Of a stretch of DNA of 64,000 nt, positions 12,934 through 59,499 are shown piece by piece. The first letter of the stretch is position 1. Every line of letters begins with the position of its first letter. A program made the position numbers and the translations under genes. Location of the stretch: NCBI GenBank assembly GCA_018819405.1, contig JAHJQF010000001.1:34097-98096 (forward strand), read 5' to 3'. This DNA is from Patescibacteria group bacterium (GTDB lineage Bacteria > Patescibacteriota > Patescibacteriia > UBA1558 > GWA2-36-10). Below the pieces are notes generated by a model, which saw only the letters and a program-made list of their open reading frames with translations, was not told the origin of the DNA and did not search any database.

Positions 12934-13320
12934 ATGGATTTTAGTCAACCCTTAAAAATAAAAGAGCGGCCAGACCCAATGAGCTCGGCCGCCTATGCTT
13001 CTTCTCAAGCTGGAGGCAAACTACCACCAATTGCGGCGATAGTCCCGCCTGTCCATGAGCTGCGCCTCCTGAGCCGCCTGCTTGCGTCTGAGTTTGGCCG
13101 CTTCTGCGAACTCGGCGTAGAGTAGCGCGGATACTTGATGTACCGATATACCCCGACGAGCTGCCTCAGCCCTGAGACGATCCTCCTTCTCCTGTTTGGC
13201 ACGAAACTTCCTGGCCTTGGATTTGGCCTGGCCGGGTGTCTGGCAGCAGCCAAAGACCCTTTCACGACGTGACGAACGTGTGCTCAAGACATACCTCCTA
13301 TGTTGTTGCCACATGTTATG
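12934..13320. other. GC-rich (by eye above 55% GC) about 390-bp islet abutting the tRNA cluster, with an Arg-rich 97-aa ORF (13021-13314, minus)
   Basis: Abrupt compositional shift. ORF ...RAEAARRGISVHQVSALLYAEFAEAAKLRRKQAAQEAQL reads like an HTH/RHH or IS OrfA-like fragment. No RNase P, tmRNA or SRP motifs were found. Confidence 0.35.
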
Positions 13321-13371
13321 GGGGCAAAACTTATAATAATTTATCTAAATTAAAACAAATTGTCAATACAA

Positions 13372-15024
13372 CTATTTGAGCAGCCTCAAACGACCCTCAT
13401 CAACAGTAATTATTCCCACCTCACTATTTTCAATACGCTTTCTCATGTCTGAGTTGGGAATGAAACGTATTGTATTGGCCATATAATTTTGATAGTTATA
13501 ATTCCAAAGCTCCCAATACACATCATTGACTTCAATTGAAGTAATACCAGTCACTACAAAAGAGCCATCTACGCTTTCGGCAAACCAGCCTAGATTGTCA
13601 CGACGCCAGTTCAAAAGATGTTTGTTTTTATTTTCTTTGTTGACCACCACATAGGCATAAGTCGGCAATATCTCTGGCGCCTTGTCTTTGTAATATATCT
13701 CAAGAGCTTGACCAAGATTATTTCTGAATACTTCTGCTCCCGATAGATTATCAGGCAAGCCAACCGACAGATAGAAATTTGTCTGAGGGGAATGTATGTA
13801 TTTGTAACTATCTACTATCTGACGACTGAGATCTCCAGCTGCCTGCCAAATAATACTTTTGTAATAAATAATAGAGCTAGACAATATCAAAAATAAAATT
13901 AAAATTATTTTTTTTATACTTAGTGAAAATTTTAAGACTGCCAACAAGTAGACCAAAATCATCAAGAAAAAACTAGCCGACAAATACATGTATCTTTCTC
14001 CAGCAAAAGTAGTGTGGTGGAGACCAGTTATTAAAAATGGTGATAGCATAAACAAAAATCCGGCAAACAAAACAAATTGGAGCCACTGTTTTTTTATAAG
14101 TAATACAAAAAAATACAAAGCCAAAAAAGAAAACAAAATAATAACAATTGGCGCCAGATAATAATAAATTGCTTTGTACATCAAAGGCCTAATAAAACCA
14201 AAAGTGACCATATCTCCCAAATAGACGGCCAAGTTGCCTGCCCAGTCACCTGCTGCCAAATTCAAACTATGACTACCATAATAACCAAATAAAAGCCCAA
14301 TAGCTATGTATCGAACCACCAAAAATGAAATCAACAAAACAAAATACCCTGTCAAATACGTATAAGCTGGTATTGATTTATTTTTTTCTTTGATAGAATA
14401 AAAATAAATTTCTAACATCATAATAACAAAAGGCAAGCTAATAGCTGTCTCTTTTATAAGTAGAGCTACGGTAAAAAATAAAAACGACAAAAACAAATTT
14501 ATTTTTTTGCTATTTTTTCTAAAGTCAAAATATTTCAAAAGTGCCAAAAAATAAAACAATGTCATCCAAAGATGTGGCCAGGCGGCTACCCAAGAAACTA
14601 TCTCCACCTGTATAGGCCAAATCAAAAATAAAAGTCCCACCAAAATGGCCCAAGGTTTTTTATCTTTTATTTTTGTCCAAGAAAAAGTATGTTTGGCCAA
14701 CAAATAAACCAACCAAGAGTTAACACCGTGTAGCAATAAGCTCACCAAATGATAGCCAAAATATCGCAAATCAAATAGGCTATAAAAAAATTTGAATATA
14801 AACACCAAAAGAGGATTGTAAGATCCACCGTAAGTCTGACCCTCATAATTGGTCAAAAATATATGCCAAGAAGGATGAAAATCGCGGGCAATGACCAACC
14901 AATGAAAATCATCAGAAACAAAAAAATTTATCAGCGCTTGGTGATAAAATAGTATGCTCAATCCCAAAAATATAAATAGAATATGCCAAGATTTTATATT
15001 GTTCAATCTATTTTGACAATCCAT
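13372..15024 (-). CDS. Polytopic membrane protein, GT-C-fold glycosyltransferase-like (PMT/ArnT-like) candidate
   Basis: More than 10 predicted TM helices followed by a soluble C-terminal domain of about 150 aa; an FVSDDFHW loop sits near the N-terminus. Confidence 0.4.
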   Translation of the reverse strand: MDCQNRLNNIKSWHILFIFLGLSILFYHQALINFFVSDDFHWLVIARDFHPSWHIFLTNYEGQTYGGSYNPLLVFIFKFFYSLFDLRYFGYHLVSLLLHGVNSWLVYLLAKHTFSWTKIKDKKPWAILVGLLFLIWPIQVEIVSWVAAWPHLWMTLFYFLALLKYFDFRKNSKKINLFLSFLFFTVALLIKETAISLPFVIMMLEIYFYSIKEKNKSIPAYTYLTGYFVLLISFLVVRYIAIGLLFGYYGSHSLNLAAGDWAGNLAVYLGDMVTFGFIRPLMYKAIYYYLAPIVIILFSFLALYFFVLLIKKQWLQFVLFAGFLFMLSPFLITGLHHTTFAGERYMYLSASFFLMILVYLLAVLKFSLSIKKIILILFLILSSSIIYYKSIIWQAAGDLSRQIVDSYKYIHSPQTNFYLSVGLPDNLSGAEVFRNNLGQALEIYYKDKAPEILPTYAYVVVNKENKNKHLLNWRRDNLGWFAESVDGSFVVTGITSIEVNDVYWELWNYNYQNYMANTIRFIPNSDMRKRIENSEVGIITVDEGRLRLLK

Positions 15025-15027
15025 AAT

Positions 15028-15483
15028 CTAAAAAGAAATTTTTACCAAAGTTAGGGTGACTAATATCTGAAAAGGTACACCATAGACGATAGAATACTGC
15101 CAACTAAATATATTGTGAAGCTTGGCATGATATACTATATACCAATATAAACTGGTCAAACGGAAACTCTCAATAACTATCCAGGCCAAATCAGGAAGCC
15201 AAGCTCCAAAGACAGCCCAAAATAAAACCCAATGGTTGATGCCCTGATGGCTAATAACATAAAAATAAACCAAAGCACAAGAAACAACCATGTCTATAGA
15301 AGCAACATTTAAAAGGTAGAGAAATTTCTCTTTACCTTTTTTATCTTCAGCCAAATTGTCATCTCCGTGAGGCACCATATCCAAAATAAAATGCGATAAT
15401 AGACTAAAAATAAACGCTAAAAATGGGTCACTTACTTTGGTACTGACCCAGATAGCAGCTGAAGTGTGCGGGGTTATAAACAT
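15028..15483 (-). CDS. Small polytopic membrane protein (151 aa), possibly a membrane-bound metal-dependent hydrolase (His/Asp-rich loops)
   Basis: Hydrophobic; HFILDMVPHGDD motif. Confidence 0.3.
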   Translation of the reverse strand: MFITPHTSAAIWVSTKVSDPFLAFIFSLLSHFILDMVPHGDDNLAEDKKGKEKFLYLLNVASIDMVVSCALVYFYVISHQGINHWVLFWAVFGAWLPDLAWIVIESFRLTSLYWYIVYHAKLHNIFSWQYSIVYGVPFQILVTLTLVKISF

Positions 15484-15510
15484 AAATCTATAATAGCATA
15501 AAAATATAAT

Positions 15511-16824
15511 TTAATAGTCCCTCAATTTCCTCATATCCTCATGTTTTTTGATGCGTTCCAAAGCTTTGGCCTCAATCTGACGAATACGCTCACGAGTGAC
15601 GCCAAACTCTTGACCCACCTCTTCCAAGGTATGAGCCACGCCATCGGTCAGACCAAAACGCATTTCTAATATCTTTTGCTCACGAGGAGTAAGATCACTG
15701 ATTACTTTGCGCACATGATCGCCTAGTAGCTTGAGAGCCGCCACACGATCTGGACCAATATTTTTTTCATCTTCAATAAAATCACCTAGGGTACTATCTT
15801 CTTCATCGTCACCAACTGATGCTTCCAAAGATACTGTCTCTTGAGAAATTTTGATAATCTGTCTTATCTTGTCAATATCCTCGCCCATTTCAGAAGCAAT
15901 CTCTTCTGGCAAGGGATCCCGACCCAATTCTTGAACCAAACGACGCTCAATCTGATTGAAACGATTGATAGTTTCTACCATGTGTACAGGAATACGGATT
16001 GTCCTACTCTGATCAGCCAAGGCACGAGTGATAGCCTGACGAATCCACCAAGTAGCATAAGTAGAAAATTTATAACCTTTGCGATAATCAAATTTTTCTA
16101 CTGCTCTAAAAAGTCCAATATTACCTTCTTGAATGAGGTCCAACAATGTCAGAGATCTGCCGGTAAATTTTTTGGCAATAGAAACTACCAAACGTAAATT
16201 GGCTTCTATCAATTTTTTCTTGGCTTCTAAATCACCTTTTTCTTTACGCTTGGCCAAAGCCATTTCTTCTTCCGAATTTAAGAGCGGCACTTTGCCAATC
16301 TCACGCAAATACATCTGGATAGAATCGGAGGCAATGTCAGTCAAATCTCCTCGCTTTTCATCACTACCTACTCCTGATTTGGACAAAATTGCCGAAGTCT
16401 TCTCATCTACATTTAAAATATTACCTTCGGTCGCTACGACAGAAATTGCCATATCTTCCAATTTGTCTAAAAGATCTTCCAGTCTTGGAATATAATCTTC
16501 CAAATTAGAAAAGACCCTCAGAATCTCATCTTCAGTGATAAAACTCCTAGAGTGGGCTTTTTTTATCAAAAGCTCAATAGCCGCTTCATCTATTTTAGCT
16601 TTGACTGCTTTTGTTTTGACAGTAGTCTTTTTGACCACTGATTTTTTAGTTGTTTTGCTGACAGATTTTTTTGCTGCCGGCTTGTTCTTTTTTAGCGCTG
16701 TTTTTTTGACAGCCGCTTTACTAGCCTTTTTAGGTTTGTTGACACTCCTTTTTGAAGCAGTGCTTTTTTTGGCCACCTTTTTTGCAGTGACCGATTTTTT
16801 AGTTGTCTTTTTTTTGACAGGCAT
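15511..16824 (-). CDS. rpoD: RNA polymerase sigma-70 factor RpoD
   Basis: Region 2 [27 protein letters not shown] and region 4 [26 protein letters not shown]; Lys-rich N-terminus. Confidence 0.95.
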
Positions 16825-16827
16825 GCG

Positions 16828-18618
16828 CTAGCTCTGTAAATTATTTATTTCTCTATTAATTAAATTTATTTTATGCGATATTTCGTCTTGTTTGGCTTTA
16901 TCTTTTACCAATTCCGACTGACGTAAATTGTTTATCAATTCCGCTCTTTGAGACTCCAAATATAATTTTTTGACCCTATTAAGCAATTGTTGAAAATCAT
17001 TTGCCAAATCCGACTGGTCTGATTCATTATAGTTTTTTTCTCCCCAAAGTGAGAGTTTTATCCAGTCATCTTTTTCTAATTGTTCAATTTCAGAGAAGTT
17101 GGCAAAATTGCCTAAATTCTGATGCTTAGTATAATAAATTATTACTTTTTTGTAAAGGGGCCTTAAACTCTCAGCAATAAACTCCGGCTCCAAATCAGCT
17201 ATCAATTTTTCTAGATATTCTTTCTTATAAAAAGCAATGGCCAAAAGCTCTTCTGAAAGCATTAGAATTTGATCTTTTCTTTTGGGTGTGGCTGCGACCA
17301 CAGTAGTTTCTGTCTTCTCCAAAAATGACTTGGCTTGATCTAAATCATTTTTAAGCATATCAAAAGGTAATTGTAACTTATCAGACAAAATCTTCAGATA
17401 ATGTGCTTGTTCTACATTACTACCTAGATATTTTATAATGGGTAGAAGTTTATTGACAGCAAGTTTTTTGTGGTCAGCGCGATTGAGATCAATAGCTGAA
17501 AAAATCCTCTTGAAATAATAATCCATTACTGGTATAGATTCTTTGATGGCGCTCAGCCAGGCATTATCGGAGTCTTTTACCATGTCAGCCGGATCCTTGC
17601 CTTTTGGTAAAACCAAAATTTTTACATTCATATCTTCCTGCCAACACAAGGCAATACTTCTAAAAGAAGCCCGAGAGCCGGCCGCATCACCATCAAAAGC
17701 TAAAATAATATTATTGCTATATCTTTTTATCAGTTTGATATGGTCTATAGTAAGAGCCGTACCTGACACTGCTACACAATTTTTAGCACTAGTCTGATGA
17801 GAAGCAATAACATCCATATTACCTTCTACAATAATCAGATATTTTTTGTTTCGGATAGTATCTTTAGCCAAATGCCAACCATAGAGTAGCCTGCTCTTGT
17901 CATATACTATGGTCTGAGGACTATTGATATACTTGCCGCCTTGTTCTATTTCATCATAGGCAATGCCGGCCAAGGTACGTGATGTAAAAGCTACTACTCG
18001 GCCTTGGCTATCAAACAGAGGAAACATCAGTCTTTTTCTAAAACGATCCACATAACCGCTATTATCTTTTTTTTTGACTATCAGACCGGCATCAAACATT
18101 TCTTTTTCGCTGTAGCCATTTTCAATCAAATATTTATAAAGGCCATCCCAAAGCTCGCCGGATAATCCTAATTTCCATTTTGAGATACTACCTTTGTCTA
18201 TTTTTCTTTTATCTAGATAATCCTTTACTTTGTCTGACACCTGGCCGTCTTGCTCCAAAATATTGTGATAAAAATCAGCCGCTGCTTGATTGACCTGATA
18301 AATGCGACTGTTGTCTTTTGTAACTATATTTGAAAAACCAGTCAAAGCTACATTGGCTCGTTCGGCTAGTATCCTAACCGCCTCTTTAAAATCTATACCC
18401 TCATACTCCTGGACAAAGCTGATTACATCGCCACCCTTATCGCAACCAAAACAATGCCAAATTTGTTTTTCTTTGGACACCATAAAGCTAGGTGTTTTTT
18501 CATTATGAAAAGGACAGACTGCCTTAAAATTGCCGCCTACCTGCTGTAGATTGATGTAACTAGACACTGTCTCTACTATATCCAAACGATTTTTTATTTC
18601 CTCTACCGGACTTGTCAT
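16828..18618 (-). CDS. dnaG: DNA primase DnaG
   Basis: CHC2 zinc finger CPFHNEKTPSFMVSKEKQIWHCFGC and TOPRIM domain (IIVEGNMDVIA). Classical dnaG-rpoD linkage. Confidence 0.95.
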   Translation of the reverse strand: MTSPVEEIKNRLDIVETVSSYINLQQVGGNFKAVCPFHNEKTPSFMVSKEKQIWHCFGCDKGGDVISFVQEYEGIDFKEAVRILAERANVALTGFSNIVTKDNSRIYQVNQAAADFYHNILEQDGQVSDKVKDYLDKRKIDKGSISKWKLGLSGELWDGLYKYLIENGYSEKEMFDAGLIVKKKDNSGYVDRFRKRLMFPLFDSQGRVVAFTSRTLAGIAYDEIEQGGKYINSPQTIVYDKSRLLYGWHLAKDTIRNKKYLIIVEGNMDVIASHQTSAKNCVAVSGTALTIDHIKLIKRYSNNIILAFDGDAAGSRASFRSIALCWQEDMNVKILVLPKGKDPADMVKDSDNAWLSAIKESIPVMDYYFKRIFSAIDLNRADHKKLAVNKLLPIIKYLGSNVEQAHYLKILSDKLQLPFDMLKNDLDQAKSFLEKTETTVVAATPKRKDQILMLSEELLAIAFYKKEYLEKLIADLEPEFIAESLRPLYKKVIIYYTKHQNLGNFANFSEIEQLEKDDWIKLSLWGEKNYNESDQSDLANDFQQLLNRVKKLYLESQRAELINNLRQSELVKDKAKQDEISHKINLINREINNLQS

Positions 18619-18718
18619 GCTCTTATCTTAGGCTAAATTTTAGCTTTAGTCAAAGAAAAAGGCGCCGGACAAAATCATGATTTGCCAGACGCCTTCTCAA
18701 TAGATTTGGGGTCAAATT

Positions 18719-18967
18719 CTACGACCCATCATCCTTTTTAGGTGGCACGAAAGCATATTTCAAGCCACACACACTGCAGTGGAAACCCTTAAAAACATCC
18801 CTGTACTGCCTACGGCCACCTGGGCCAAAAATACGTGGCCCTGTGCTGGGATCATACTCTGTTGTTATGACCTTTACTATCTTAGCGCCGCAAACCACAC
18901 AATGACCATCGGTTTCAACTACTTGTGACATTTCTAATCCTTTCGTTGAGTGAACGTTGATGGACAA
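18719..18967 (-). CDS. Small zinc-ribbon protein (two CxxC pairs)
   Basis: CVVCGAK...CSVCGLK. Confidence 0.4.
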   Translation of the reverse strand: MSINVHSTKGLEMSQVVETDGHCVVCGAKIVKVITTEYDPSTGPRIFGPGGRRQYRDVFKGFHCSVCGLKYAFVPPKKDDGS

Positions 18968-19426
18968 TTAAAAATTAACACTATTTTCCAAACTAATCAA
19001 ATATTTTTTATTTTTTAGGCCACCAGCATAACCAACTAGCCTACCAGTAGCACCCACTACTCTGTGGCAAGGTATAATAATAGGTATTTTATTTTTATTG
19101 ACTGCTTGACCTATTGCTCGGCTAGCCAGAGGATTGCCTACCATTTTGGCCAGATCAGAATAAGAAATAACACTGCCATAAGGTATTTTGGACAAGGCAA
19201 GCCAAACTTTATTTTGCCAATTAGTGCCCGCTAGCTTAATAGGTAAATCAAATTTTTTTCTTTTACTTTTGAAATACTGGTTTAATTGAACAACACACTT
19301 GGTTCCAAGTGTGTTGTCGCTATTTTGGCCAATTTTTTTGACAAAATTTATAGCCAAAATATTTTGTTTGTCAGATACAATTTCTAAAACACCGACTGGT
19401 GAATCTAGATAATTTCTGTATTGCAT
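18968..19426 (-). CDS. ogt: Methylated-DNA-protein-cysteine methyltransferase (O6-alkylguanine alkyltransferase)
   Basis: Active site IPCHRVVGATG. Confidence 0.9.
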   Translation of the reverse strand: MQYRNYLDSPVGVLEIVSDKQNILAINFVKKIGQNSDNTLGTKCVVQLNQYFKSKRKKFDLPIKLAGTNWQNKVWLALSKIPYGSVISYSDLAKMVGNPLASRAIGQAVNKNKIPIIIPCHRVVGATGRLVGYAGGLKNKKYLISLENSVNF

Positions 19427-20368: not shown

Positions 20369-20379
20369 ATTTTTATATT

Positions 20380-20610: not shown

Positions 20611-20614
20611 ATTT

Positions 20615-21331: not shown

Positions 21332-21334
21332 ATT

Positions 21335-28778: not shown

Positions 28779-28921
28779 TGAGGAATATAAATATTATTCT
28801 TTTTCTCTGGTTGTAAAACCAGAATCTAGTTCCTTACAACCTAAAACAACAAACAGAAAGGAGTTGTTTAAGCATAATTTGCTAGTCTAATTCTGGACTA
28901 AGCAAAAGTCAAACTAACAAC

Positions 28922-30796
28922 TTGAAGAGAGGTAGAATCGTGAAGAGAACATTCTTGATTCTGTTGGCTCTGATCATAACGATCAGTAGCAATGTCCTTG
29001 CACAAGGACCAATCAGCGGATTTTACTACCCCGCTGATGAGATGGTCAATGACTGGCAGTACTATGCCAGCAGAAGCTTCTACGTCGACAACAACCACCT
29101 CGGAGCAGACGTAGATCTGGCGGAGGGAGTGGCGATCAAGGCCATAGCTAGGGGTAAAATCGTCTACTACGCCGGGGCATCATCCTATGGTGCTCTAGTG
29201 GTAGCAATTGAACACGAACTCCCAGAGGAAATAACTTTCCTTGGTGCTACTGGCGAGCTGAGAACGACCAGGTACGTACTCTCAATCTATGGACATCTAC
29301 GAAAAAGTGCAGAGAGAGTAGGCGCAGAACTGCCTTGGCAATACGGAGATATTGTCCAACAGGGTGACATAATCGGTTATGTAAATAATAGTAGTCATCC
29401 TGATGGAATTGCTCCAGACCCAAATGGTGATGGACTTGAACATCTGCATCTGGGAATTCGTCTATCAAATGAAGCAACCGCCAAAGCCCAAGACGGGAGC
29501 CTGTGGCTCAGAGGTTACAATAACAACTCTGGGATGCAAATTTACTTTACTAATCCGATACCCCTGGTATCTGGATTGGCACAATTTGCACAGTCTCCTT
29601 CATGGCAGACCGAAAATGGAGTTTCGTTGTCCTTCATGAACACGTACAATGCCTCTACTGTGGATGATCATCCCCTTGGGATGCCTTGGCAAAATACAGA
29701 GTACGGCTCTATGTATGTTCATGAAGTTAACAACATGCTCATCCAGGACTTTCAAGATCTTCGTGATGAGGGTGGTCCAAGTAATGGTTACTACAACCCT
29801 TACACGGCCATCATTCGTTACGATGATCCCTGGATGAGCCGAGAAGCCCGCTTGCTCAAAGAGGGGTTCTGGGATGTTTGGATGAATCGTCGTGGCTGGA
29901 TCACCTTTGGTTTTCCCACTACAGACGAGGAACTTGATAGTGGAAGAGTCTGGCAGACATTCCGTCGGCCTGGCTTCAACTACCAGAACAATCCCAATGA
30001 CTACAAAGAGTTCCACTTCCGTTGGGACTCTAACACCCAGAGCCTTGATATCCTGGATCAATACTACAACCCCGTAATGTTTTCGGAGTTGGTGGTCGAA
30101 CCAGGAAGTCCCTCTACTATGTTGGAAATGAGTGGAAACAACTACTCTGCTTCCGACATAGCGGAGTTGAAAGAGGCCACTGGTAATAAAGAGGTTACTG
30201 GCGGTGGTTCTATGTCCGAAAACAACCCATTCAAAGAGATGGGACTTTTGGACAGTAGCACGAAATCCCTGACTAATGGCGTCTACCACTCTGGTATTAA
30301 GGTAGCCGCTTTTGGTGAAGCTTTCGAGCTTGTAGAAGGGAACAGCTACGGCGATTTCTATGCCGTAGTCAATGGATCCATGGTACTCATGGACTCTTTT
30401 ACCATGAACGGCAATATGGTTATCTATATTGACGATTCACCCCCAGTAGGAGAGCTCCAGTTTGGCTATTGGACCATTTCGCCCAATCCTGGCAACGTTG
30501 GACAATCGCTCCATCTTGAAGGAGAAGTTTACAACGTTGGAGGATCACCAGTCACTATCTCGGAAGTAAAGATAGAGCTCATTGACCCTAGCGGCAATGA
30601 AGCCTACCATTACTCCGAGTACAACGTTGTTTTGCAACCAGGAAGCGGCTGGTATCAGTGGATGGAATGCTATCCATATATGCCAGGCAATCACACTGTT
30701 CGCTTTCGCGGACTGGTTGATGGGCAATGGACGACATTCTCTACGCACACTGTGTATGTCGAGGGTAGTCAAATAGTCTCTCATCTAGTCGACTGA
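28922..30796 (+). CDS. Secreted M23 (LytM-type) zinc metallopeptidase with a large C-terminal extension; GC-rich, probably acquired
   Basis: HLGADVDLAEG...YGHL...GDIIGYVNNSSHPDG...EHLHLGI is an M23 signature. Signal peptide; probable true start is GTG at 28940 after RBS gaggtag. GC well above its neighbours. Confidence 0.8.
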   Translation: MKRGRIVKRTFLILLALIITISSNVLAQGPISGFYYPADEMVNDWQYYASRSFYVDNNHLGADVDLAEGVAIKAIARGKIVYYAGASSYGALVVAIEHELPEEITFLGATGELRTTRYVLSIYGHLRKSAERVGAELPWQYGDIVQQGDIIGYVNNSSHPDGIAPDPNGDGLEHLHLGIRLSNEATAKAQDGSLWLRGYNNNSGMQIYFTNPIPLVSGLAQFAQSPSWQTENGVSLSFMNTYNASTVDDHPLGMPWQNTEYGSMYVHEVNNMLIQDFQDLRDEGGPSNGYYNPYTAIIRYDDPWMSREARLLKEGFWDVWMNRRGWITFGFPTTDEELDSGRVWQTFRRPGFNYQNNPNDYKEFHFRWDSNTQSLDILDQYYNPVMFSELVVEPGSPSTMLEMSGNNYSASDIAELKEATGNKEVTGGGSMSENNPFKEMGLLDSSTKSLTNGVYHSGIKVAAFGEAFELVEGNSYGDFYAVVNGSMVLMDSFTMNGNMVIYIDDSPPVGELQFGYWTISPNPGNVGQSLHLEGEVYNVGGSPVTISEVKIELIDPSGNEAYHYSEYNVVLQPGSGWYQWMECYPYMPGNHTVRFRGLVDGQWTTFSTHTVYVEGSQIVSHLVD

Positions 30797-31259
30797 ATTC
30801 AGCTTTGAATTTATTTGTTTCAATATTTATTGCTTTTTCTGCTTCATTTATTTTGTTCTTCGTTTCTGATAAAATAACTTCCTTCAGTTTAATATTTTTG
30901 CTCTCCGAAACACTTTCTATTTTTTCGAGTAACAATTTTTCTGCTTCAGCAATCTTGTTCTCAGTTTCTAAAGATAATTTTTTTTCTTGACCACTGAAGG
31001 ATTTTAGTAATTTTTTATCATTTTCGTGACTAAATGAATCAATTGAGGAATCTACCTCATCTCTTATTTGATCTACCAAAGCACGCGTATCCTCGTTTAG
31101 CTTATTGATGCTTTCTTCTTGTTTATCAAGTTTTTTTCTAAGTGGGTTAAGATTAAAGAAAGAAAAGGCAACGCCAAATGCCAACAAAATGGTTACTGAT
31201 ATAGCTAAATAAGCTATGTTAGATTGAACTAATACTTCTGTTAAATTCACTACTTCCAT
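30741..31259 (-). CDS. Membrane-anchored coiled-coil protein, hypothetical; convergent 56-bp overlap with the M23 gene
   Basis: N-terminal TM followed by a heptad-rich Lys/Glu region. Confidence 0.4.
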   Translation of the reverse strand: MEVVNLTEVLVQSNIAYLAISVTILLAFGVAFSFFNLNPLRKKLDKQEESINKLNEDTRALVDQIRDEVDSSIDSFSHENDKKLLKSFSGQEKKLSLETENKIAEAEKLLLEKIESVSESKNIKLKEVILSETKNKINEAEKAINIETNKFKAEFSRLDERLFDYPRHTQCA

Positions 31260-31345: not shown

Positions 31346-31560
31346 AATTAACTAATTTTTTAAGACCATAGTGCTAGCACGAGTGCCCTTCGACTCGCTC
31401 ACTTCGTTCACTCGCTCAGGACATTCGATTCTATTGGTCGAATGGTCGGAGGTGCTGTAAGCACCGCAGATCATGAGTGAACTTTTGCAAAGCAAAAGCG
31501 AATCGAATGGCGGTGCACTCGGGTTAAGTAGCACCAACACGCAAATGTTATAAGGGTTTT
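31346..31560 (-). ncRNA. Candidate structured small RNA (about 215 nt, GC-rich, unknown class)
   Basis: GC-rich island in an AT-rich spacer with nested complementarity on the minus-strand RNA: GGUGC...GCACC, CUUUUGC-UUU-GCAAAAG, GGUGCU-UACA-AGCACC, long-range CAUUCGAUUC/GAAUCGAAUG and CGAGUGC/GCACUCG. Ends at its own terminator. Confidence 0.4.
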
Positions 31561-31683
31561 TGATGATTTTATCTATAACCTAATTTAGGTACGTGGGTCG
31601 TAGTAAAATGCGACAGTATAAAAGATTATTAAATATATTGTTTTAAAAAAAATGCCACTTTTCCGTGCCTAATAGTTTTACTT

Positions 31684-32319: not shown

Positions 32320-32366
32320 TTTTTATTAAAAAGGGGTAGGTCATTCATGAATGAATTTCCTACCCC
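32320..32366 (-). terminator. Rho-independent terminator closing the GC-rich island operon
   Basis: GGGGTAGG-18 nt-CCTACCCC hairpin 2 nt past the HAD gene stop; U-run on the minus strand. Confidence 0.6.
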
Positions 32367-32368
32367 GA

Positions 32369-33031
32369 TCAACGCAATCTTAATGGCCAATCCAATTGAC
32401 CGACCACAAAATCAGCTTTAGCTGAAAGAACATTTTGGTACTTAGTATTTGGTCTTTTTACCTCCACAACTAGCGCCTCAGGAAATCTCGTCTTTACCTC
32501 ATCGATATTTTTTGGATTATCATCCAAAAAAATAATCGGCGAGGTACCTATAATTTCCATATAGCGCCACTTAACTCCTGATGTAACCGTGAAGCTGTGG
32601 CAAAGATCACTAAGCTTGCTTCCGACAAATTTAGCAAGCTGGAAATTTAGATCACCATGAGTTAATATAACCACCTCACAACCTGATCTTATCGCAGAAC
32701 CAAGAAAAAGCTCAGAATCATCGAAAACGTACAAATGACCTTTTTCTCTAACATATTTCTGCATTTCTACTACAACTTTTCTAATTCTGTCTAGCTCAAT
32801 TCTTTGACTTCTTTGAACCATCAGAAAAAAGTTAAACAGCAGGTTGTCTGGGGGAACTAAAGCGAGAGATGGATCAAGTAAATCCCTACTAATTCCACAC
32901 GCTTCACACAATTCGTACAGATCCCGATAAAGCGCATCGGAATCAAATACAGTTCTATCAAAATCGACAATAAGCAGTTCCTGACTACTTGTATTCATTA
33001 ACGAAATCCTCCTTTGTGGAACATCAAACAA
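32369..33031 (-). CDS. HAD-superfamily phosphatase/hydrolase (GC-rich island)
   Basis: Motif I IVDFDRTVF (DxDxT) and late FLDDNPKN motif. Confidence 0.7.
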   Translation of the reverse strand: MFDVPQRRISLMNTSSQELLIVDFDRTVFDSDALYRDLYELCEACGISRDLLDPSLALVPPDNLLFNFFLMVQRSQRIELDRIRKVVVEMQKYVREKGHLYVFDDSELFLGSAIRSGCEVVILTHGDLNFQLAKFVGSKLSDLCHSFTVTSGVKWRYMEIIGTSPIIFLDDNPKNIDEVKTRFPEALVVEVKRPNTKYQNVLSAKADFVVGQLDWPLRLR

Positions 33032-33080
33032 TTAAGAGGGATAAGGCTCAATCATGCATATAGCACAATTGAGCCTTGGG

Positions 33081-34127
33081 TTACAACTTGGATGTCTCAT
33101 GGATTCTCTCCACGAGTGTTGGAATGTATTTCTTCTTACACTCGCCACAAAGCGAGGTGCCGGAAACACATTCCTGATACATCCGCGTTGTTGCGTCGTA
33201 AGGTTGTAAAACCTCGGCGATCTTAAAGAAAGAACAATTATGTGGGTTACCACCTTTCCGACGCTGTTCTTCTGGAGTCGAACGACCACCGGAAAAACTT
33301 CGTCGCAGTTTACGCTCAATCTGCTCGCGAGTCTCGTCTAGAAGAATGAGTGATTTTGAGTTCTTCACGCTCATTCTCTGTCCAGGATCTTCCAAGCTTG
33401 GAAGAAGCAGGCGATACGAGTAACTCGGCAACGGAAGCTTAAGTTGACGAGCAATTATCTTCGTAGCTTCCGCGTGTGTGATCTGGTGGATGTCCGATAG
33501 GACAAGAGTCGGACGATTCGGAAAAAGTGTTGTCGGCAAAAGAAACGCTGCGGCTGTGATGGCAGGAACACGAAGCGTAGTAACAGAAACACCCTCGTCC
33601 CAACCATATAGTTGCAAAACCTTTCTTGCCGACAGACACGCTCCTGAACGATTGTCGAGAACTTGGAGTTCCCGACAATCTTGGTCAGAGAAACTCACTG
33701 AAGCATCTGGTAACGAATCACCTATAAACTTCAGATATGTCTCTCCAAACCTCGCCATCTCAATCTTTGCGTCATTGGCACTTAGAAGCCGATCCGCCTC
33801 GTACCCAGCAAACACGAAAATTGGTTGACCACCCTGTTGGACGAGCCAATACAATTCTCGCATTAGTGTGAGATGACCGAGGTGGAATGTCGCACCAGGA
33901 CGCATACCAACTAACACCGAGAACTGCTTTCCAATTACCATTGCTTTGAAGACAGGCAGTGGGTTTTGAAAAGCCCAAACACTGACACGAGCGAAGCCTT
34001 CCCAAATATCGGTAAAATTGTCGGTCAACGCCCCCGCTATTGTCTCGAGAGAGAATTGTTTAACTACGTTGGTTGCTTCAGCAGCAGCCAATATTGCTCT
34101 TTCTCCCAGCCAGTTTTCAAGCGCCAT
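33081..34127 (-). CDS. Divergent TrpRS-like class I aminoacyl-tRNA synthetase paralog with a C-terminal C-x21-C-x6-C-x2-C (putative Fe-S) cluster
   Basis: HIGH-like GMRPGATFHLGH, KMSKS-like SVKNSKSL, and C-terminal NCSFF...QECVSGTSLCGECKKK. Has an N-terminal extension of about 70 aa. GC-rich. Confidence 0.65.
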   Translation of the reverse strand: MALENWLGERAILAAAEATNVVKQFSLETIAGALTDNFTDIWEGFARVSVWAFQNPLPVFKAMVIGKQFSVLVGMRPGATFHLGHLTLMRELYWLVQQGGQPIFVFAGYEADRLLSANDAKIEMARFGETYLKFIGDSLPDASVSFSDQDCRELQVLDNRSGACLSARKVLQLYGWDEGVSVTTLRVPAITAAAFLLPTTLFPNRPTLVLSDIHQITHAEATKIIARQLKLPLPSYSYRLLLPSLEDPGQRMSVKNSKSLILLDETREQIERKLRRSFSGGRSTPEEQRRKGGNPHNCSFFKIAEVLQPYDATTRMYQECVSGTSLCGECKKKYIPTLVERIHETSKL

Positions 34128-34966
34128 TAGTGTCTCCTTTACTTGATTACGCGTGGAGAAAATGAATCATCTCCTCCAAGCGACTTTCCAGGTTGTTGTC
34201 TCTGACATACTGCTCGGCTTTCTGCATGTAGAATGCGGGAAAGTCCGGCATACCCCCATGAAGACTACTTCCCAGCGCCCAAAAACGAGCAACCGCCGCG
34301 AGAGTACTTTCATGCAACTGCTCTTCGGAAAGTGCATGATGGTATCGAAACATATCCCCGCTTTGTGTTACGATCCCCGCTTTCAGAAAAGACAAGGTTG
34401 TCGCCTCAGCCATCCTTACCCACAACTGCTGAAAGGATGGAGAGATGTAGTAACGCAGAAAATAACTGCGATACCACGGACATAGATGGAAGCGCGCGAG
34501 TACGGAGTCTGCCACCAAGTCTACACTTGTGGCAAAAATTCTTTCTCGCTTTACAGCCATCGCTGCCGCAAACGGCCCGATGAACGCCCCACCGACTTCC
34601 ATAACCACATCCCTATCTTTTTGCGAAGCCATGAACATAACATGAGGGTTATATACTTTGCCGGCGAAGTATCCTCCGAAAGTTTTCTGTCTACCATCAC
34701 TCACAAAATCATTTCTATTAAGTAAGTAGATGGTGACCGGATAACCCTCGAAGGACGATTGAATCCTTTGAATAGTGGTTGGTTGCGTGTGGATAAAGAG
34801 AAGATCAAGGTCACTCTCGGGATTTTGTTGGTTCAGCACGAAGCTGCCGTAGCACACCCAAAAGCTCCCGTCACCTTCTTGTGCTCCGATTTCGCTCGCA
34901 AGACATGCAACCGCTCGCGCAACAAAGTCGAAGTTTTCTTGCTTCATGAATGTTCTGTACACGTGC

Positions 34967-37101
<2,135 letters not shown>

Positions 37102-37320
37102 TTAGAGCTATTTTGCTTGACTTGAATTGTCAAGGTTCTGAAACACGAACCAGAATTTAATGTCACTGGTATGACATTTTATTTTACGATAAAACATACA
37201 TTTTGTCAAGCATATATATTCATATATTATTACAATATCCGACTAAGGTCAAACAAAAAAACACTATCAAAATAAATAGTATTTTTATAGGTAATCGGGT
37301 CATCCGATACTAAATTGTCG

Positions 37321-37411
37321 TGGCGGAGAGGACAGGATTCGAACCTGCGAGGGATTTTACTCCCTACTCGCTTTCCAAGCGAGCGCACTAGACCAACTAT
37401 GCGACCTCTCC
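37321..37411 (-). tRNA. tRNA-Ser(GGA): tRNA-Ser (anticodon GGA), long variable arm, CCA encoded
   Basis: GGAGAGGTCGCATAGTTGGTCTAGTGCG-CTCGC-tTGGAaa-GCGAG-TAGGGAGTAAAATCCCTCGC-AGGTTCGAATCCTGT-CCTCTCCGCCA. Confidence 0.8.
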
Positions 37412-37661
37412 ATGTTTTAATACGCTTTTCAAGTTTAGCCCGTAAATAAGCGCAGCGAATTTTACGGGCCGTGTGCACTACCCGCCTGCCACGGCTTCGC
37501 CGAAGGCGATGGCGGGCAGGGACCACCCACCGCCACAAATATCTAATTTAAATGAAGGCGGGGTCCCGCTACGCGGGATATGCGAACCTTCCTAGTGACC
37601 AACTATGTTTAGCCCGTAGCCAGACAAGCTATGCTTGGATGTGCTATGGGCCGACCTCTCC
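37412..37661. other. GC-rich hairpin-rich about 250-bp element abutting the tRNA-Ser 5' end, bounded by an 11-bp direct repeat of the tRNA 5' end
   Basis: cgacctctcca at 37403-37413 and 37651-37661. Hairpins GCCCGTAAA-14-TTTACGGGC, CCTGCC...GGCAGG, TCCCGC-tac-GCGGGA; gtttagcccgta is repeated. Confidence 0.4.
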
Positions 37662-52788: not shown

Positions 52789-52995
52789 ACTAACCAAACT
52801 TTTTACGTAAAAATTAAAAATTCACTCCATTAAATGAATTTAATTTATTTGGGGTATTTAAAATAATATTATATAATAAATTATATCTATAATTTATTTA
52901 TTACTAATCTAAATATTAAATTTGAAATTAAGCCGTTGCTTGATTTTATTTAACGAGGTAAAGATATAGGAGTCTTCTCTAAAATAAAAAAAAGT

Positions 52996-54849: not shown

Positions 54850-54873
54850 TTAACAAATTAACAAAAAACTGTT

Positions 54874-56796: not shown

Positions 56797-56811
56797 ACAA
56801 ATTTAAACTTA

Positions 56812-56852
56812 AAAACACCCGTCGGGTTGGAGACCGGACGGGTGTTTTATTA
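56812..56852 (+). terminator. Rho-independent terminator after rnj
   Basis: ACACCCGTCGG-gttggaga-CCGGACGGGTGT followed by TTTTATTATT. Confidence 0.7.
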
Positions 56853-56950
56853 TTATAATTGACAAAAAAAATATAATAAGCTATATTAGCCTGTTTTGAG
56901 ATTGGATAAGTCGTAGACCTGTCAGACCATCCCTAAACTGGAGGAATACA

Positions 56951-57541
56951 ATGAAGTTCTTGATTCTCACTACCCTGATCTTTCTGTCCATTTCCATGCC
57001 TACCCTGGCTGGAGACTCGGTCGGCATCGAGATGCACGCGGATTCGCCAGTCATCATCTTCGCCGACAAGTATGTCAGTGACCACTCCATGATCCACCTC
57101 TGGGCCGTGCCTGGCGTCCAGACCAACTTGCTCTTCCGTATGGGGTCAAACCCCTACAAGATCCTCAAGAAATGTGAATTTGGCCTGGGACCGAGCTTTG
57201 CTATCGTCGATGACCACGAAGTCTGGGCTTACTATGACCTAGAACTGGACACTAAAATCCAACTGGGTCAACTCACTTGGATAGGCTATCGACTTGGACA
57301 ACTTGCCCGCTACAACAGCCTGCAAGACAATTCGCTCCTGCGTGAGCAACTCTTCTGGGGAGATTTTCCTCTGGGAGTGATTGGCAACAACCTGTTCGCC
57401 GATAGTGCCAAACCCCGTTGGTTTTGGGGCGCGGTCTATAGTTTGGGCCGGACAGCATACTTCGGCACCAACAAGATCTTTATCACGGTCAACCTGGCCA
57501 ATACTAACGAAGTTTGGGCCGCCTGGCTTCTCGAAATCTAG
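56951..57541 (+). CDS. GC-rich secreted hypothetical protein (signal peptide), probably acquired
   Basis: RBS GGAGG 6 nt upstream; signal peptide MKFLILTTLIFLSISMPTLA; codon usage and GC unlike neighbours; no recognisable motif. Confidence 0.5.
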   Translation: MKFLILTTLIFLSISMPTLAGDSVGIEMHADSPVIIFADKYVSDHSMIHLWAVPGVQTNLLFRMGSNPYKILKKCEFGLGPSFAIVDDHEVWAYYDLELDTKIQLGQLTWIGYRLGQLARYNSLQDNSLLREQLFWGDFPLGVIGNNLFADSAKPRWFWGAVYSLGRTAYFGTNKIFITVNLANTNEVWAAWLLEI

Positions 57542-57556
57542 ACGGCAACCAGACAT

Positions 57557-57596
57557 CACGGCTCGGTGACGCAAGTCACCGAGCCGCTTATTTTTA
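57557..57596 (+). terminator. GC-rich perfect-hairpin terminator
   Basis: CGGCTCGGTGAC-gcaa-GTCACCGAGCCG followed by TTATTTTTA. Confidence 0.75.
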
Positions 57597-57711
57597 TCCA
57601 AAAACTATATTTGCCTTTAGGCTATATTTAAGATAAAATATAATTAATAGCGTAAAAATCTCATATTAATAAAAACTAGCCGCTGAAACATATTCAGCCT
57701 GACAAACAATT

Positions 57712-58665
57712 ATGAAAACATTATTTTCCGGCATCCAGCCAACTGGCAATCTGCACTTGGGCAATTATCTAGGAGCTATCAAAAATTGGGTAGAGTTACA
57801 AAAAAAATATAACTGTATTTTTTCAATTGTTGACTTGCATGCTTTGAGTTCCAATATCACAGCCCAAGAAATACGAAAAAACATTTTTGATTTGGCAGTA
57901 GATCTAATTGCTCTGGGCATTGACCCAAAAAAATCAATTTTATTTCAGCAGTCCAAAGTAGCTGAGCACACTGAACTGGCTTGGATATTTAATTGTATTA
58001 CGCCTGTATCTGAACTGGAAAGAATGACTCAATTCAAAGACAAAGCCAAAGAGCAGTCTAGTAATATTAATGCCGGGTTATTTGATTATCCAGTCTTACA
58101 AGCAGCTGATATATTACTTTACAAAGCCGAGGCTGTCCCGGTTGGCGAAGACCAGATACAGCATGTAGAATTGACACGCATCATTGCCAAAAAATTTAAT
58201 AACCGCTTTGGCCAATATTTCCCCGAAGCCCAGGCAGTCCTTTCTCCCGCCAAAAGAGTTATGTCTTTAAATAATCCTGACAAAAAAATGAGCAAATCTC
58301 TAGGCGAAGCCAGTTATATTGCTATCAGAGATAGCCGAGACACAATAAGCAAAAAAATAAAAAAAGCAGTTAGCGACGAACAGGGCACAAAAAATCTACT
58401 AGAACTATATAGCTACTTTGGCGACAAGAAAAAACATACCCAAATGACCAAAGACTTTTCTGCTAGAAAACTTATGAACTCTCAGCTAAAAGATGAACTG
58501 ACAATATCTGTCCTAAAATTCCTAGAGCCTATTCAGAAAAAAATATTAATATTAGAAAAAAATCCAGCCAAGGTAAACAAAATACTAGATGATGGAGCAA
58601 AGAGGGCTCAAAAAATCGCCAGCAAAAATATGTCGACCATCAGAAAATTAATTGGTATTAGATAA
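57712..58665 (+). CDS. trpS: Tryptophanyl-tRNA synthetase (native, AT-rich copy)
   Basis: SGIQPTGNLHLGNYLGAI (HIGH), KMSKSLGE (KMSKS); 317 aa. Confidence 0.95.
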   Translation: MKTLFSGIQPTGNLHLGNYLGAIKNWVELQKKYNCIFSIVDLHALSSNITAQEIRKNIFDLAVDLIALGIDPKKSILFQQSKVAEHTELAWIFNCITPVSELERMTQFKDKAKEQSSNINAGLFDYPVLQAADILLYKAEAVPVGEDQIQHVELTRIIAKKFNNRFGQYFPEAQAVLSPAKRVMSLNNPDKKMSKSLGEASYIAIRDSRDTISKKIKKAVSDEQGTKNLLELYSYFGDKKKHTQMTKDFSARKLMNSQLKDELTISVLKFLEPIQKKILILEKNPAKVNKILDDGAKRAQKIASKNMSTIRKLIGIR

Positions 58666-58671
58666 TATAAA

Positions 58672-58713
58672 AATGACCTTCGAGGTTGGTTCAACCTCGA
58701 AGGTCATTTTTTA
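58672..58713 (+). terminator. Rho-independent terminator after native trpS
   Basis: TGACCTTCGAGGTTG-gt-TCAACCTCGAAGGTCA followed by TTTTTT. Confidence 0.8.
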
Positions 58714-58714
58714 T

Positions 58715-58756
58715 ACAAAAAGAAAGCCCCGGGTGTCAAATGTTTGACACACGGGG
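58715..58756 (-). terminator. Terminator for the convergent GC-rich gene
   Basis: CCCCGGGTGTCAAA-tg-TTTGACACACGGGG (one mismatch) with a U-rich tract on the minus strand. Confidence 0.55.
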
Positions 58757-58809
58757 CGAGTTGCACACTTCTACTTCAGCTCAAGGGAAAGAGATGAAAG
58801 TTGAAAGTG

Positions 58810-59499
58810 TTAGGAAATTACCTGGCGGGCGCGCACAATGCCACCGGCACCGTTAGGACTGAACCAGTCGATGATGTGGAGCCTGCCGCCGTCAGCATCC
58901 CACCTGACGCCCAGCACGCCGCCATCGCGGTCGTACGAACCAGCGCACATGGTGATGTTGCTGACATCCAGATGCTGACCAGTTTCCGACCAGTACTTGA
59001 GCTCGAGCACCAGACGCTCAAGCAGGGTAATGGCGTTGACGCCCTGCTGTTTCAGCTGGTTAGCCGAAAGGCTCTTGAGTTCCTCGTCGGCCTCCACCCG
59101 CTCGCGCAGACGAATCGCGTAGCTCTTATCCGACTGGCGGATGTTCTCGACGATGTCCTTGTCCAGGTTGTCCTCGTGGCTCCAGGCCGGGAACTGCTTG
59201 CGGATGGCCTCGAGCACATCGTTGAGCTTCAATCCCTTGGGGATGAAAATGACGCGGTCAAAGTCGCCGGGATTGAGAGCGATAGTGACTCCGTAGAAGT
59301 CCACCACGAGCCGGAAGTACTTGCGGTAGAACTCTTCCCACTCGCCACCGATATCGGTGATGGCGAAAGGATCCTGACGCTGAAGGAAAAGCTCCAGCTC
59401 ACGCACGGTTATAACACCATGCCGTAGTTTGTGCATCAGGTCTGCCAGCAAACCAAGCACCTTGCCCGGTAAGCTACCGATCACTTGCTTCTTGCTCAT
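58810..59499 (-). CDS. GC-rich hypothetical protein (229 aa), probably acquired
   Basis: By eye about 55% GC against an AT-rich background; no recognised motif. Confidence 0.45.
   Translation of the reverse strand: MSKKQVIGSLPGKVLGLLADLMHKLRHGVITVRELELFLQRQDPFAITDIGGEWEEFYRKYFRLVVDFYGVTIALNPGDFDRVIFIPKGLKLNDVLEAIRKQFPAWSHEDNLDKDIVENIRQSDKSYAIRLRERVEADEELKSLSANQLKQQGVNAITLLERLVLELKYWSETGQHLDVSNITMCAGSYDRDGGVLGVRWDADGGRLHIIDWFSPNGAGGIVRARQVIS

Follow-up and report, generated by a model that had tools for sequence, protein, structure and literature searches.

GC-rich islands in an AT-rich Patescibacteria genome: coding cassettes probably drawn from the gene pool of the Patescibacteria, and structured non-coding patches at tRNA loci

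What brings seven discrete patches of high guanine-plus-cytosine (GC) content into a genome that is otherwise AT-rich? The question is posed by a stretch of 64,000 bp (assembly GCA_018819405.1, contig JAHJQF010000001.1, forward-strand positions 34,097 to 98,096; hereafter the window), whose source is an AT-rich, Parcubacteria-like Patescibacteria genome. A reading made from the letters alone (the original prediction) had ascribed all seven patches to repeated acquisition, with little amelioration, from a higher-GC donor such as the host bacterium of an episymbiont. The analysis described here argues for a different answer: the coding cassettes probably come from the flexible gene pool of the Patescibacteria, while patches 3 and 5 are non-coding and no patch is likely to be artefactual. 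In the proposed process, islands 2, 4 and 7, and probably also 1 and 6, would have entered from Patescibacteria lineages of higher GC; once imported, the cassettes would drift slowly toward the composition of the recipient while keeping ribosome-binding sites and terminators in the style of the donor. Patches 3 and 5, each behind a promoter at a tRNA locus and rich in stable hairpins, would owe their composition to RNA structure or to relics of insertions at tRNA genes. The evidence supports horizontal acquisition of islands 4, 6 and 7 and makes it likely for island 2. Since compositional islands are well known as a mark of gene transfer, finding such patches is in itself no surprise; under the proposed process, a reduced genome would draw on a gene pool shared among Patescibacteria, with its own composition and translation signals, and not on the genome of its presumed host.

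The whole window has a GC content of 0.374, and the background that remains after the patches and tRNA genes are masked has 0.353. Against this background stand patch 1 (12934-13320; GC 0.550), patch 2 (28900-30800; 0.472), patch 3 (31346-31560; 0.456), patch 4 (32320-37320 as first claimed, 0.464; core at 33032-37130, 0.487), patch 5 (37412-37661; 0.540), patch 6 (56900-57600; 0.518) and patch 7 (58715-59500; 0.562). For patches 1, 2, 4, 5, 6 and 7, none of the 629-1040 background intervals of the same length reaches the GC of the patch; patch 3 is weaker, with 2.9% of such intervals equally GC-rich. All seven are outliers in tetranucleotide distance, patch 3 lying in the top 0.1% of background. 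The borders are abrupt (GC 0.27-0.40 in the 200-bp flanks versus 0.45-0.58 inside), and GC at third codon positions (GC3) is 0.44-0.75 in the open reading frames (ORFs) of the islands, compared with 0.23-0.38 in 41 of 46 backbone ORFs, whose full range is 0.15-0.42. By GC, GC3 and tetranucleotide statistics alike, the patches separate from the backbone and composition is not uniform, so the description of discrete GC-rich patches with abrupt edges holds, patch 3 being the weaker case.

Translation signals differ as well. A GGAG or GAGG sequence at positions -18 to -3 precedes four of the eight island genes (two more have a partial one) compared with 1 of 46 backbone genes, which confirms the foreign style of ribosome-binding site; most backbone genes have A-rich leaders without a Shine-Dalgarno sequence. 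The contrast is sharp inside one genome, and the presence or absence of a Shine-Dalgarno sequence could mark foreign genes in this lineage. The reported contact with tRNA genes is seen at three patches: a 36-bp gap separates patch 1 from tRNA-Leu, and one tRNA-Ser gene is bordered directly at its 5' end by patch 5 and followed on its 3' side by island 4. Also as stated originally, no residual integrase is present; no integrase, transposase or recombinase domain is found in any window ORF of at least 90 amino acids. The features of the patches are as follows.

13021-13287, minus strand: island 1, small basic ORFan (88 amino acids from a TTG at 13287, or 97 from an ATG at 13314)
28922-30796, plus strand: island 2, M23-family metallopeptidase surface protein (Pfam Peptidase_M23)
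31346-31560, minus strand: patch 3, structured non-coding segment, candidate small RNA (fold z -4.5 on the minus strand, -3.7 on the plus strand)
33081-34127, minus strand: island 4, gene 4, archaeal-type tryptophanyl-tRNA synthetase (TrpRS) paralogue (Pfam tRNA-synt_1b)
34147-34962, minus strand: island 4, gene 3, pol-beta-type nucleotidyltransferase-like protein of 271 amino acids with a GTG start (weak NTP_transf_2, MntA and GlnD matches)
34967-36070, minus strand: island 4, gene 2, APH/protein-kinase-like phosphotransferase of 367 amino acids (weak but specific APH matches)
36067-37086, minus strand: island 4, gene 1, auxiliary TrpRS of the TrpRS II class, with HLGH and KMSKS (PDB sequence matches)
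37412-37661, minus strand: patch 5, hairpin-rich, GC-rich leader between a promoter and tRNA-Ser
56951-57541, plus strand: island 6, ORFan of 196 amino acids between RNase J and the resident TrpRS1 (GC3 0.66)
58810-59499, minus strand: island 7, target (variable) protein of a diversity-generating retroelement (DGR), 229 amino acids (GC3 0.75; family match)
58822-58941, minus strand: counterpart of a variable region (VR), at the 3' end of the gene of island 7 (alignment with the template repeats of loci L011 and L103)

Three features of the backbone adjoin the islands.

32369-33031, minus strand: HAD-like gene, 220 amino acids, DxDxT motif (GC 0.38 and GC3 0.31, like the backbone)
37321-37411, minus strand: tRNA-Ser(GGA), between island 4 and patch 5 (ARAGORN and Rfam)
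57712-58665, plus strand: canonical resident TrpRS1, AT-rich (GC 0.36), between islands 6 and 7

The largest island, island 4, is a conserved operon around an auxiliary TrpRS that occurs in several Patescibacteria classes. The five ORFs first listed for it are this four-gene operon plus the HAD-like gene. The limits given for the island, 32320-37320, therefore stand only in part: the GC-rich core is real, and the edges are actually at ~33032, because the HAD-like gene has the composition of the backbone, and at ~37130, where a 190-bp AT-rich promoter spacer separates the island from tRNA-Ser. Gene 1 matches the TrpRS II of Deinococcus radiodurans (1yi8, 2a4m) with 450 bits and ~68% identity, the next solved TrpRS scoring 258 bits, and is only 35% identical to TrpRS1 of the window, whose own top PDB matches are canonical bacterial TrpRS enzymes of the Bacillus and E. 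coli type. A near-consensus promoter lies 5' of gene 1 (37209-37181, minus strand), and hundreds of metagenomic proteins are 77-90% identical to it, under names that include Berkelbacteria, Kaiserbacteria, Paceibacterota and Geobacteraceae. In gene 2, the motifs HGDPQPSN and DWEW are invariant in the orthologue alignment and correspond to the HGDxxxxN and D-x-E signatures of APH/kinase-like phosphotransferases; the NCBIfam APH(3') model matches with an E-value of 3e-5, and a profile match to the spectinomycin phosphotransferase 3i0o spans the catalytic loop. Gene 3, whose start is set by the orthologue alignment and an AAGGAG site upstream, has a GS...DLD motif (the GS...DxD signature of pol-beta nucleotidyltransferases); a PDB profile search with it gave no match. 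Gene 4 keeps the HIGH motif (as HLGH) and has RMSVK in place of KMSKS. Its four cysteines (C298, C320, C327 and C330, spaced C-x21-C-x6-C-x2-C) are invariant in seven orthologues and resemble those of [4Fe-4S] TrpRS enzymes; the NCBIfam PRK12285 models score far under their cut-offs, and the top PDB matches are the archaeal TrpRS enzymes of A. pernix and P. horikoshii. The literature searched holds nothing specific on the four-gene cassette; no published description could be found, and the operon appears new.

The cassette is present, with the same gene order, in at least seven other Patescibacteria genomes. The loci, numbered here with the prefix L, include the following.

L002: Berkelbacteria CP066697, complete genome
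L005: Patescibacteria MAG_93
L006: Parcubacteria GW2011_GWA2_40_23
L007: 7-kb contig binned as Gammaproteobacteria; flanks Patescibacteria-like, with GC 0.37 and an RNase J 54% identical to that of the window
L099/L100: Kaiserbacteria
L101/L102: 897-kb JGI contig

Cassette proteins are 67-88% identical across these lineages. In particular, between the window and L007 they are 71-82% identical and RNase J is 54% identical; this excess over backbone identity supports exchange of the cassette among lineages. Outside the Patescibacteria only TrpRS II is seen, and it is seen alone, in Geobacteraceae (79% identical) and Deinococcus (~68%). A solitary TrpRS II also occurs at L003 (GCA_038106525). (That locus, JAYOEC010000001 positions 1-21020, is a mosaic of ~0.42 and ~0.55 GC segments in which TrpRS II is a solitary 1-kb GC-rich gene with a Peptidase_S51 gene nearby; such a mosaic suggests that patchy composition may be common in these genomes.) The surroundings of the cassette vary. 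At L099 and L101 it is joined by a TylF-type methyltransferase, an aminotransferase and a GFO/IDH/MocA oxidoreductase, and at L101 it lies downstream of genes resembling those of type IV secretion systems (PrgI, TraC-like, TraG-like). At L002 a FeeM-like N-acyl amino acid synthase and a ThiF protein lie upstream, and a GCS2-family ligase, an AstE/AspA-family hydrolase, a tRNA-Trp (2 kb from the cassette) and a pyridoxal-dependent decarboxylase lie downstream (14241-17596); this neighbourhood looks amino-acid or tryptophan related.

The composition of the cassette is graded across these genomes. In Berkelbacteria its GC of 0.53-0.55 is near that of the surrounding genome (~0.51). L005, L006 and L007 have cassettes of 0.52-0.57 within flanks of 0.33-0.47, most of them under 0.42. 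The window copy follows with 0.48-0.50, then that of L099 with 0.44-0.50, and the series ends at L101, where the cassette has 0.40-0.46 and its flanks 0.35-0.43. The GC3 of the cassette in the window, 0.44-0.55, is the lowest of five measured copies, the others having 0.55-0.71. Such a series fits import followed by amelioration that is still in progress, and the claim of little amelioration is not borne out. Nor is recency, in the case of island 4: at L006 the cassette, the HAD-like gene (86% identical) and a Peptidase_S51 gene (81%) stand in the order seen in the window, and at L101 the cassette is again accompanied by S51 (78%), with three other genes in between. This shared linkage argues that the acquisition is older than the divergence of these genomes. 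Identity at third codon positions between the window and L006, which is similar for the cassette (0.66-0.74) and for backbone genes (0.64-0.86), likewise speaks against a recent event.

For islands 6 and 7, the evidence for insertion comes from syntenic relatives. At L014 (a 963-kb contig with a uniform GC of 0.29) and L013, the order solute-binding protein, RNase J, TrpRS1, racemase, phosphoglucomutase is kept, and the spacers there, 39 bp between RNase J and TrpRS1 and 7 bp between TrpRS1 and the next gene, amount to empty sites for the two islands. In the window, the first gap holds the 196-amino-acid ORF, and the second holds the DGR target together with a dehydrogenase gene of backbone-like composition. 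(The closest metagenome relative of TrpRS1 itself is 53% identical, and it was the same scan that gave the syntenic loci L013, L014 and L025.) The N-terminus of the island 6 ORF resembles a signal peptide, and a GGAGG ribosome-binding site precedes the gene. The ORF has no homologues beyond its own genome, no Pfam, NCBIfam, PHROG or PADLOC family and no match in a plasmid collection, and a single-sequence structure model of it is unusable (predicted local distance difference test score, pLDDT, 36).

The gene of island 7 is predicted from its sequence to be a DGR target, in a family that is confined to Patescibacteria: 132 homologues are detectable and every named one is from this group. At L011/L012 and at L103, the homologue adjoins a bAvd gene and an RVT_1 reverse transcriptase (RT) gene. 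The last 117-118 nt of the gene at L011 and L103, the VR, are repeated between the gene and avd as the template repeat (TR), and the mismatches from TR to VR fall at TR adenines in 21 of 22 cases (L011) and 16 of 16 (L103). When the VR of the window is aligned with these two TRs, both of them foreign, 20-21 of ~30 differences are at TR adenines, and within the window the invariant scaffold pattern of the VR matches only 58822-58941. Through adenine-specific mutagenic retrohoming, the C-terminal 120 nt of a surface or ligand-binding protein would be rewritten. Searches for repeats, for the scaffold pattern and for homologues revealed no TR, Avd or RT in the 64-kb window, which makes the gene a remote or orphaned target here. 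That remote targets exist in the family is seen from P0134, a member at a distance of 18 kb from the DGR of the L103 contig; it has no adjacent RT and differs from the TR at adenines in 28 of 33 positions. An AlphaFold model of the island 7 protein (pLDDT 90.7) has no significant structural neighbour, a C-type-lectin fold being an expectation.

The Mtd protein of Bordetella phage is reportedly a DGR variable protein, and Paul et al. are said to have found DGRs in abundance, in 2017, in candidate phyla radiation (CPR) and DPANN genomes. The family of island 7 resembles known DGRs in that members lie beside bAvd and RT and show adenine-specific changes from TR to VR, and the window gene has the same VR scaffold. 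However, the window target has no TR, Avd or RT within 64 kb, and the window thus offers a clean example of a DGR target gene apart from its retroelement. A phage origin was considered and rejected: scans of viral contigs gave nothing for the DGR target and TrpRS matches of only 56% identity, and PHROG gave nothing substantial. Side observations on the family concern the complete loci. At L103 (8001-10442) and L011 (4852-7300) the target has a GC of 0.52-0.58, and the adjoining Avd and RT genes have 0.30-0.35; RT and Avd are 89.5% identical between the two loci, and the targets are ~66-68% identical to the window protein. In the distant relative L025 (1445-6873), the TrpRS1 homologue has Avd, RT and a target-family gene immediately upstream, an arrangement which suggests that the adjacency of TrpRS1 and DGR target may be old.

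Island 2 was first described as an M23 peptidase, and the Pfam Peptidase_M23 match bears this out. By its sequence it is predicted to be a truncated form of a cell-wall-lytic M23/PKD surface protein of Patescibacteria. Relatives are detectable in only 238 of 1.84 billion representatives, the best being Patescibacteria proteins of 1100-1900 amino acids with PKD repeats. The gene is 84.6% identical in nucleotides to an internal part of a 1302-amino-acid gene of a related genome (L096), without the PKD tail of the latter. The homologues at L095 and L096 have a GC of 0.40-0.52 within flanks of 0.25-0.38, and at L095 the M23/PKD gene lies among a serine recombinase, methylases and MutH, a setting that, like the genes of type IV secretion kind beside the cassette at L101, counts in favour of transfer.

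Island 1 is treated as a small ORF, because the folding of patch 1 is not significant: with fold z values of -1.9 and -0.6, no better than shuffled sequence, its candidacy as an RNA was rejected. (A permuted tmRNA overlapping tRNA-Leu, called by relaxed ARAGORN, was judged spurious.) The ORF has a GC of 0.58 and a GC3 of 0.63, lies 5' of tRNA-Leu, and is provided with an AGGAGG site and a GC-rich hairpin terminator at ~12965-12993; the strong Shine-Dalgarno sequence and the GC-rich terminator suggest that the gene is expressed and foreign in style. No Pfam, NCBIfam, PHROG or PADLOC family scores above threshold, and the protein forms a singleton cluster, the gene being called only by Logan/ENA.

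The two non-coding patches appear to have a different basis. For patches 3 and 5, the likeliest source of the high GC is RNA structure, or else relics of insertions that targeted tRNA genes, and not the import of genes. Patch 3 had been called structured RNA-like, which its fold z of -4.5 bears out. It is followed by an intrinsic terminator (31344-31322, minus strand), and a block at 31506-31630 is conserved upstream: this block is 74% identical to L096 4593-4727, has a hairpin followed by GCCA, and contains two compensatory base-pair changes. The folding, the terminator and the conserved block suggest that patch 3 is probably transcribed as a small RNA. In L096, which has tRNA genes at the position of patch 3, the block stands directly 5' of tRNA-Arg (followed by tRNA-Ser), and in the window it stands directly 5' of the rest of patch 3. 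Patch 5 lies behind a near-consensus promoter (TTGACT-17-TATACT, 37705-37677) and has fold z values of -2.5 and -3.6. It contains a 12-nt internal repeat and two related hairpins, each ending in TACGGGCTAAAC. Just after the promoter, the patch opens (37661-37597, minus strand) with the first 21 nt of tRNA-Ser in a broken copy, 186 nt upstream of the tRNA gene itself: GGAGAGGTCG is followed by a 44-nt insertion (a hairpin plus a short tail) and then by CATAGTTGGTC. Stem and TAAAC tail recur in the second hairpin, at ~37433-37465. Two readings of patch 5 are possible, a structured leader and what is left of a small insertion targeted to the tRNA. In Rfam searches of patches 1, 3 and 5, at the gathering threshold and at E-values up to 5, only tRNAs were found and nothing else was credible; an intron-containing tRNA-Pro called in patch 3 by relaxed ARAGORN was judged spurious.

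Could the imports instead be recent, little ameliorated and derived from the higher-GC host of an episymbiont? The atypical composition, the abrupt boundaries and the Shine-Dalgarno signals foreign to the backbone would suit such a donor, and so would the ORFan of island 6, which looks like a secreted beta-rich protein; since TrpRS II occurs alone in Geobacteraceae and Deinococcus (68-79% identity), the ultimate source of that one gene could lie outside the radiation. However, the nearest named relatives of the islands are Berkelbacteria, Kaiserbacteria, Parcubacteria, Komeilibacteria, Minisyncoccia and Liptonbacteria. The best-hit taxonomy, run for the islands with homologues, thus gives Patescibacteria for every one of them and no candidate host, and the claim of a host donor is not borne out. 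In addition, the full four-gene cassette is seen only in contigs of Patescibacteria type (including L007, whose bin is Gammaproteobacteria and whose flanks are Patescibacteria-like), the Geobacteraceae locus carrying TrpRS II alone; island 4 is old, as it occupies the same locus in relatives, and its GC3 is ~10 points under that of other copies. Import from a host is therefore quite improbable. A chimera, in which reads of a higher-GC organism were assembled or binned with this genome, would have seemed natural in a metagenome-assembled genome whose composition switches abruptly at gene boundaries. Against it, island and backbone proteins lie together on the NCBI (1,035,212 bp), Logan/ENA (1,035,872 bp) and JGI (187,754 bp) contigs, a separate 5.1-kb Logan contig (SRR6514730) spans the junction of island 4 with S51, and the cassette-HAD-S51 and cassette-...-S51 junctions recur in other genomes; moreover, every island starts and ends intergenically, with promoters and terminators intact. 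Chimerism, which had been named as the finding that would overturn the patches, is thus unlikely on assembly-level evidence (three assemblies, a bridging contig, recurrent junctions), and as an account of the seven patches it deserves hardly any credence.

A further explanation holds that high GC is intrinsic to these gene families and RNAs and is kept by selection on RNA structure, codons or amino-acid needs, or by GC-biased gene conversion in genes that recombine often, not brought in by recent transfer. Homologues of islands 2, 4 and 7 are indeed GC-rich patches in many low-GC Patescibacteria, the targets of DGR loci have a GC of 0.56-0.58 beside Avd and RT genes of 0.30-0.35, the non-coding patches 3 and 5 fold more stably than shuffled sequence, and the tRNA genes of the window are GC-rich for the same structural reason. 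But GC3 is raised in the coding islands, and not only GC at first and second positions; the GC of the cassette runs continuously down to nearly that of the surrounding genome (L101), which fits decay after import better; the identity of the cassette across lineages is far above that of backbone genes; and islands 6 and 7 are absent from syntenic relatives. As an explanation for the patches, intrinsic GC is unlikely. For the GC-rich families of islands 2, 4 and 7, either frequent exchange or family-specific maintenance of GC would serve as an explanation, and for island 4 the amelioration series favours exchange. Coding cassettes drawn from the Patescibacteria gene pool, with patches 3 and 5 apart, remain the preferred account, and it has to bear several points that weigh against it. 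No mobility gene, direct-repeat boundary or attachment site is found for any island in the window. L014 and L013 are only 50-63% identical to the window in protein, so gene loss there is possible. For islands 1 and 6, which have no homologues, the foreign call consists of composition and ribosome-binding site, plus the one empty site of island 6. Because only the target is GC-rich in DGR loci, selection or biased gene conversion could keep its GC high without recent transfer. Finally, strong purifying selection could partly explain the high conservation of the cassette in place of transfer. Repeated acquisition is upheld in one part, through foreign composition, the empty sites of islands 6 and 7 and cassette identities of 67-88% against ~54%, and given up in another: no single explanation covers all seven, because patches 3 and 5 do not code for protein and patches 1 and 6 hold ORFans.

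In the model of Lawrence and Ochman, genomic islands are acquired horizontally and then ameliorate. The patches resemble classic genomic islands in their atypical GC, GC3 and oligonucleotide composition, their proximity to tRNA genes, their absence in syntenic relatives and the gradation of older copies toward the recipient. They differ in that the window has no mobility genes or flanking repeats and the islands are single genes or one operon; in addition, the donors would belong to the recipient's own radiation, and the same families are GC-rich in many recipients. No repeats flank the coding islands or are common to different patches in the window, and the only repeat found at any patch in a search for island boundaries is the partial 5' copy of tRNA-Ser inside patch 5.

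What might the operon of island 4 do? With low confidence, its gene content may be read as an auxiliary or protective module for charging tryptophan, in which TrpRS II would keep tRNA-Trp charged while the canonical enzyme is inhibited, and the kinase, the nucleotidyltransferase and the TrpRS-like paralogue would make or inactivate a small molecule directed at TrpRS. Its enzymes suggest that a compound acting on tryptophan charging is either made or resisted, and resistance through drug modification would be an equally good role for the kinase and nucleotidyltransferase. A more specific version, which is doubtful, sees a self-contained module that spreads horizontally among Patescibacteria. 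It would either make an inhibitor resembling tryptophanyl-adenylate, with TrpRS II as the immunity gene of the producer, or act as a target-replacement addiction module, in which the resident TrpRS or tRNA-Trp would be put out of action by the kinase or the nucleotidyltransferase, with TrpRS II saving the cell. If either version holds, tryptophan charging would be the point of attack of a weapon, or of a selfish element, in an ultra-small episymbiont. Retention of the module in cell-dependent genomes of ~1 Mb argues for an important role in conflict or dependence. Weighing against these functional readings, the kinase and nucleotidyltransferase domains were recognized through weak matches, with E-values of 3e-5 to 2e-3.

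Known systems offer partial parallels. Auxiliary TrpRS enzymes have roles in stress or in resistance to TrpRS inhibitors (PMC9437257). Buddha et al. 2004 and Kitabatake et al. 2002 are earlier reports on such extra TrpRS copies, TrpRS II of D. radiodurans among them. Like TrpRS II of D. radiodurans, gene 1 (~68% identical) has both the HIGH and the KMSKS motif and coexists with a canonical TrpRS (35% identical); unlike it, gene 1 heads a four-gene operon and has no nitric-oxide synthase gene nearby. An archaeal-type TrpRS-A with a partner ORF1 of unknown function has been described in genomes of CPR bacteria, which are the Patescibacteria, and of DPANN archaea, its function being left open (Mukai et al. 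2017; PMC5370408). In both cases an archaeal-type TrpRS stands in a CPR genome beside other TrpRS genes and coexists with the bacterial TrpRS, and the four-cysteine motif is closely similar, C-x21-C-x6-C-x2-C in gene 4 and C-x22-C-x6-C-x2-C in TrpRS-A (PMC5370408). By contrast with the TrpRS-A/ORF1 operons, to which a tRNA-Trp(A73) gene belongs, the window has no tRNA-Trp and gene 4 has RMSVK, not KMSKS; the partner genes of the window are kinase-like and nucleotidyltransferase-like, a comparison that is by description only. Producers of indolmycin, mupirocin and albomycin have antibiotic clusters that include a second, resistant aminoacyl-tRNA synthetase (PMC9437257). The operon is compatible with such clusters by domain content, in that a divergent second synthetase lies beside a kinase, a nucleotidyltransferase and a synthetase-like adenylating enzyme; at L099 and L101 the methyltransferase, aminotransferase and oxidoreductase next to the cassette add to the likeness. 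It differs from them in consisting of only four core genes plus the HAD-like gene and Peptidase_S51. No product and no homology to a known pathway were found for the cassette, and the kinase-like protein has no match in the plasmid collection.

The rest of the window is that of an ordinary backbone. It has seven tRNA genes, which are GC-rich for RNA-structural reasons, and Rfam at the gathering threshold adds no other family across the whole window. Housekeeping genes include RpoD, DnaG, Ogt, S-adenosylhomocysteine hydrolase, GroEL/ES, UvrA, phosphoenolpyruvate synthase and RNase J, as well as the canonical TrpRS, lactate/malate dehydrogenase and phosphoglucomutase. A PHROG scan of the window proteins gave trivial matches only, and the PADLOC defence-system models gave none.

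Two compositional features that the original prediction did not list lie at the left end of the window. The first 3712 bp (1-3712) form a low-GC island, an anomaly in the opposite direction (GC 0.25-0.32, GC3 0.17-0.23), with genes of restriction-modification or defence type: a Dam-type methylase, a GmrSD endonuclease, a PD-(D/E)XK nuclease and an N6/N4 methylase. Next to it, a gene at 3767-4288 on the minus strand encodes a 173-amino-acid protein with a treble-clef zinc finger (zf_Tbcl_2), whose GC of 0.46 is above background and whose GC3 of 0.37 is near that of the backbone.

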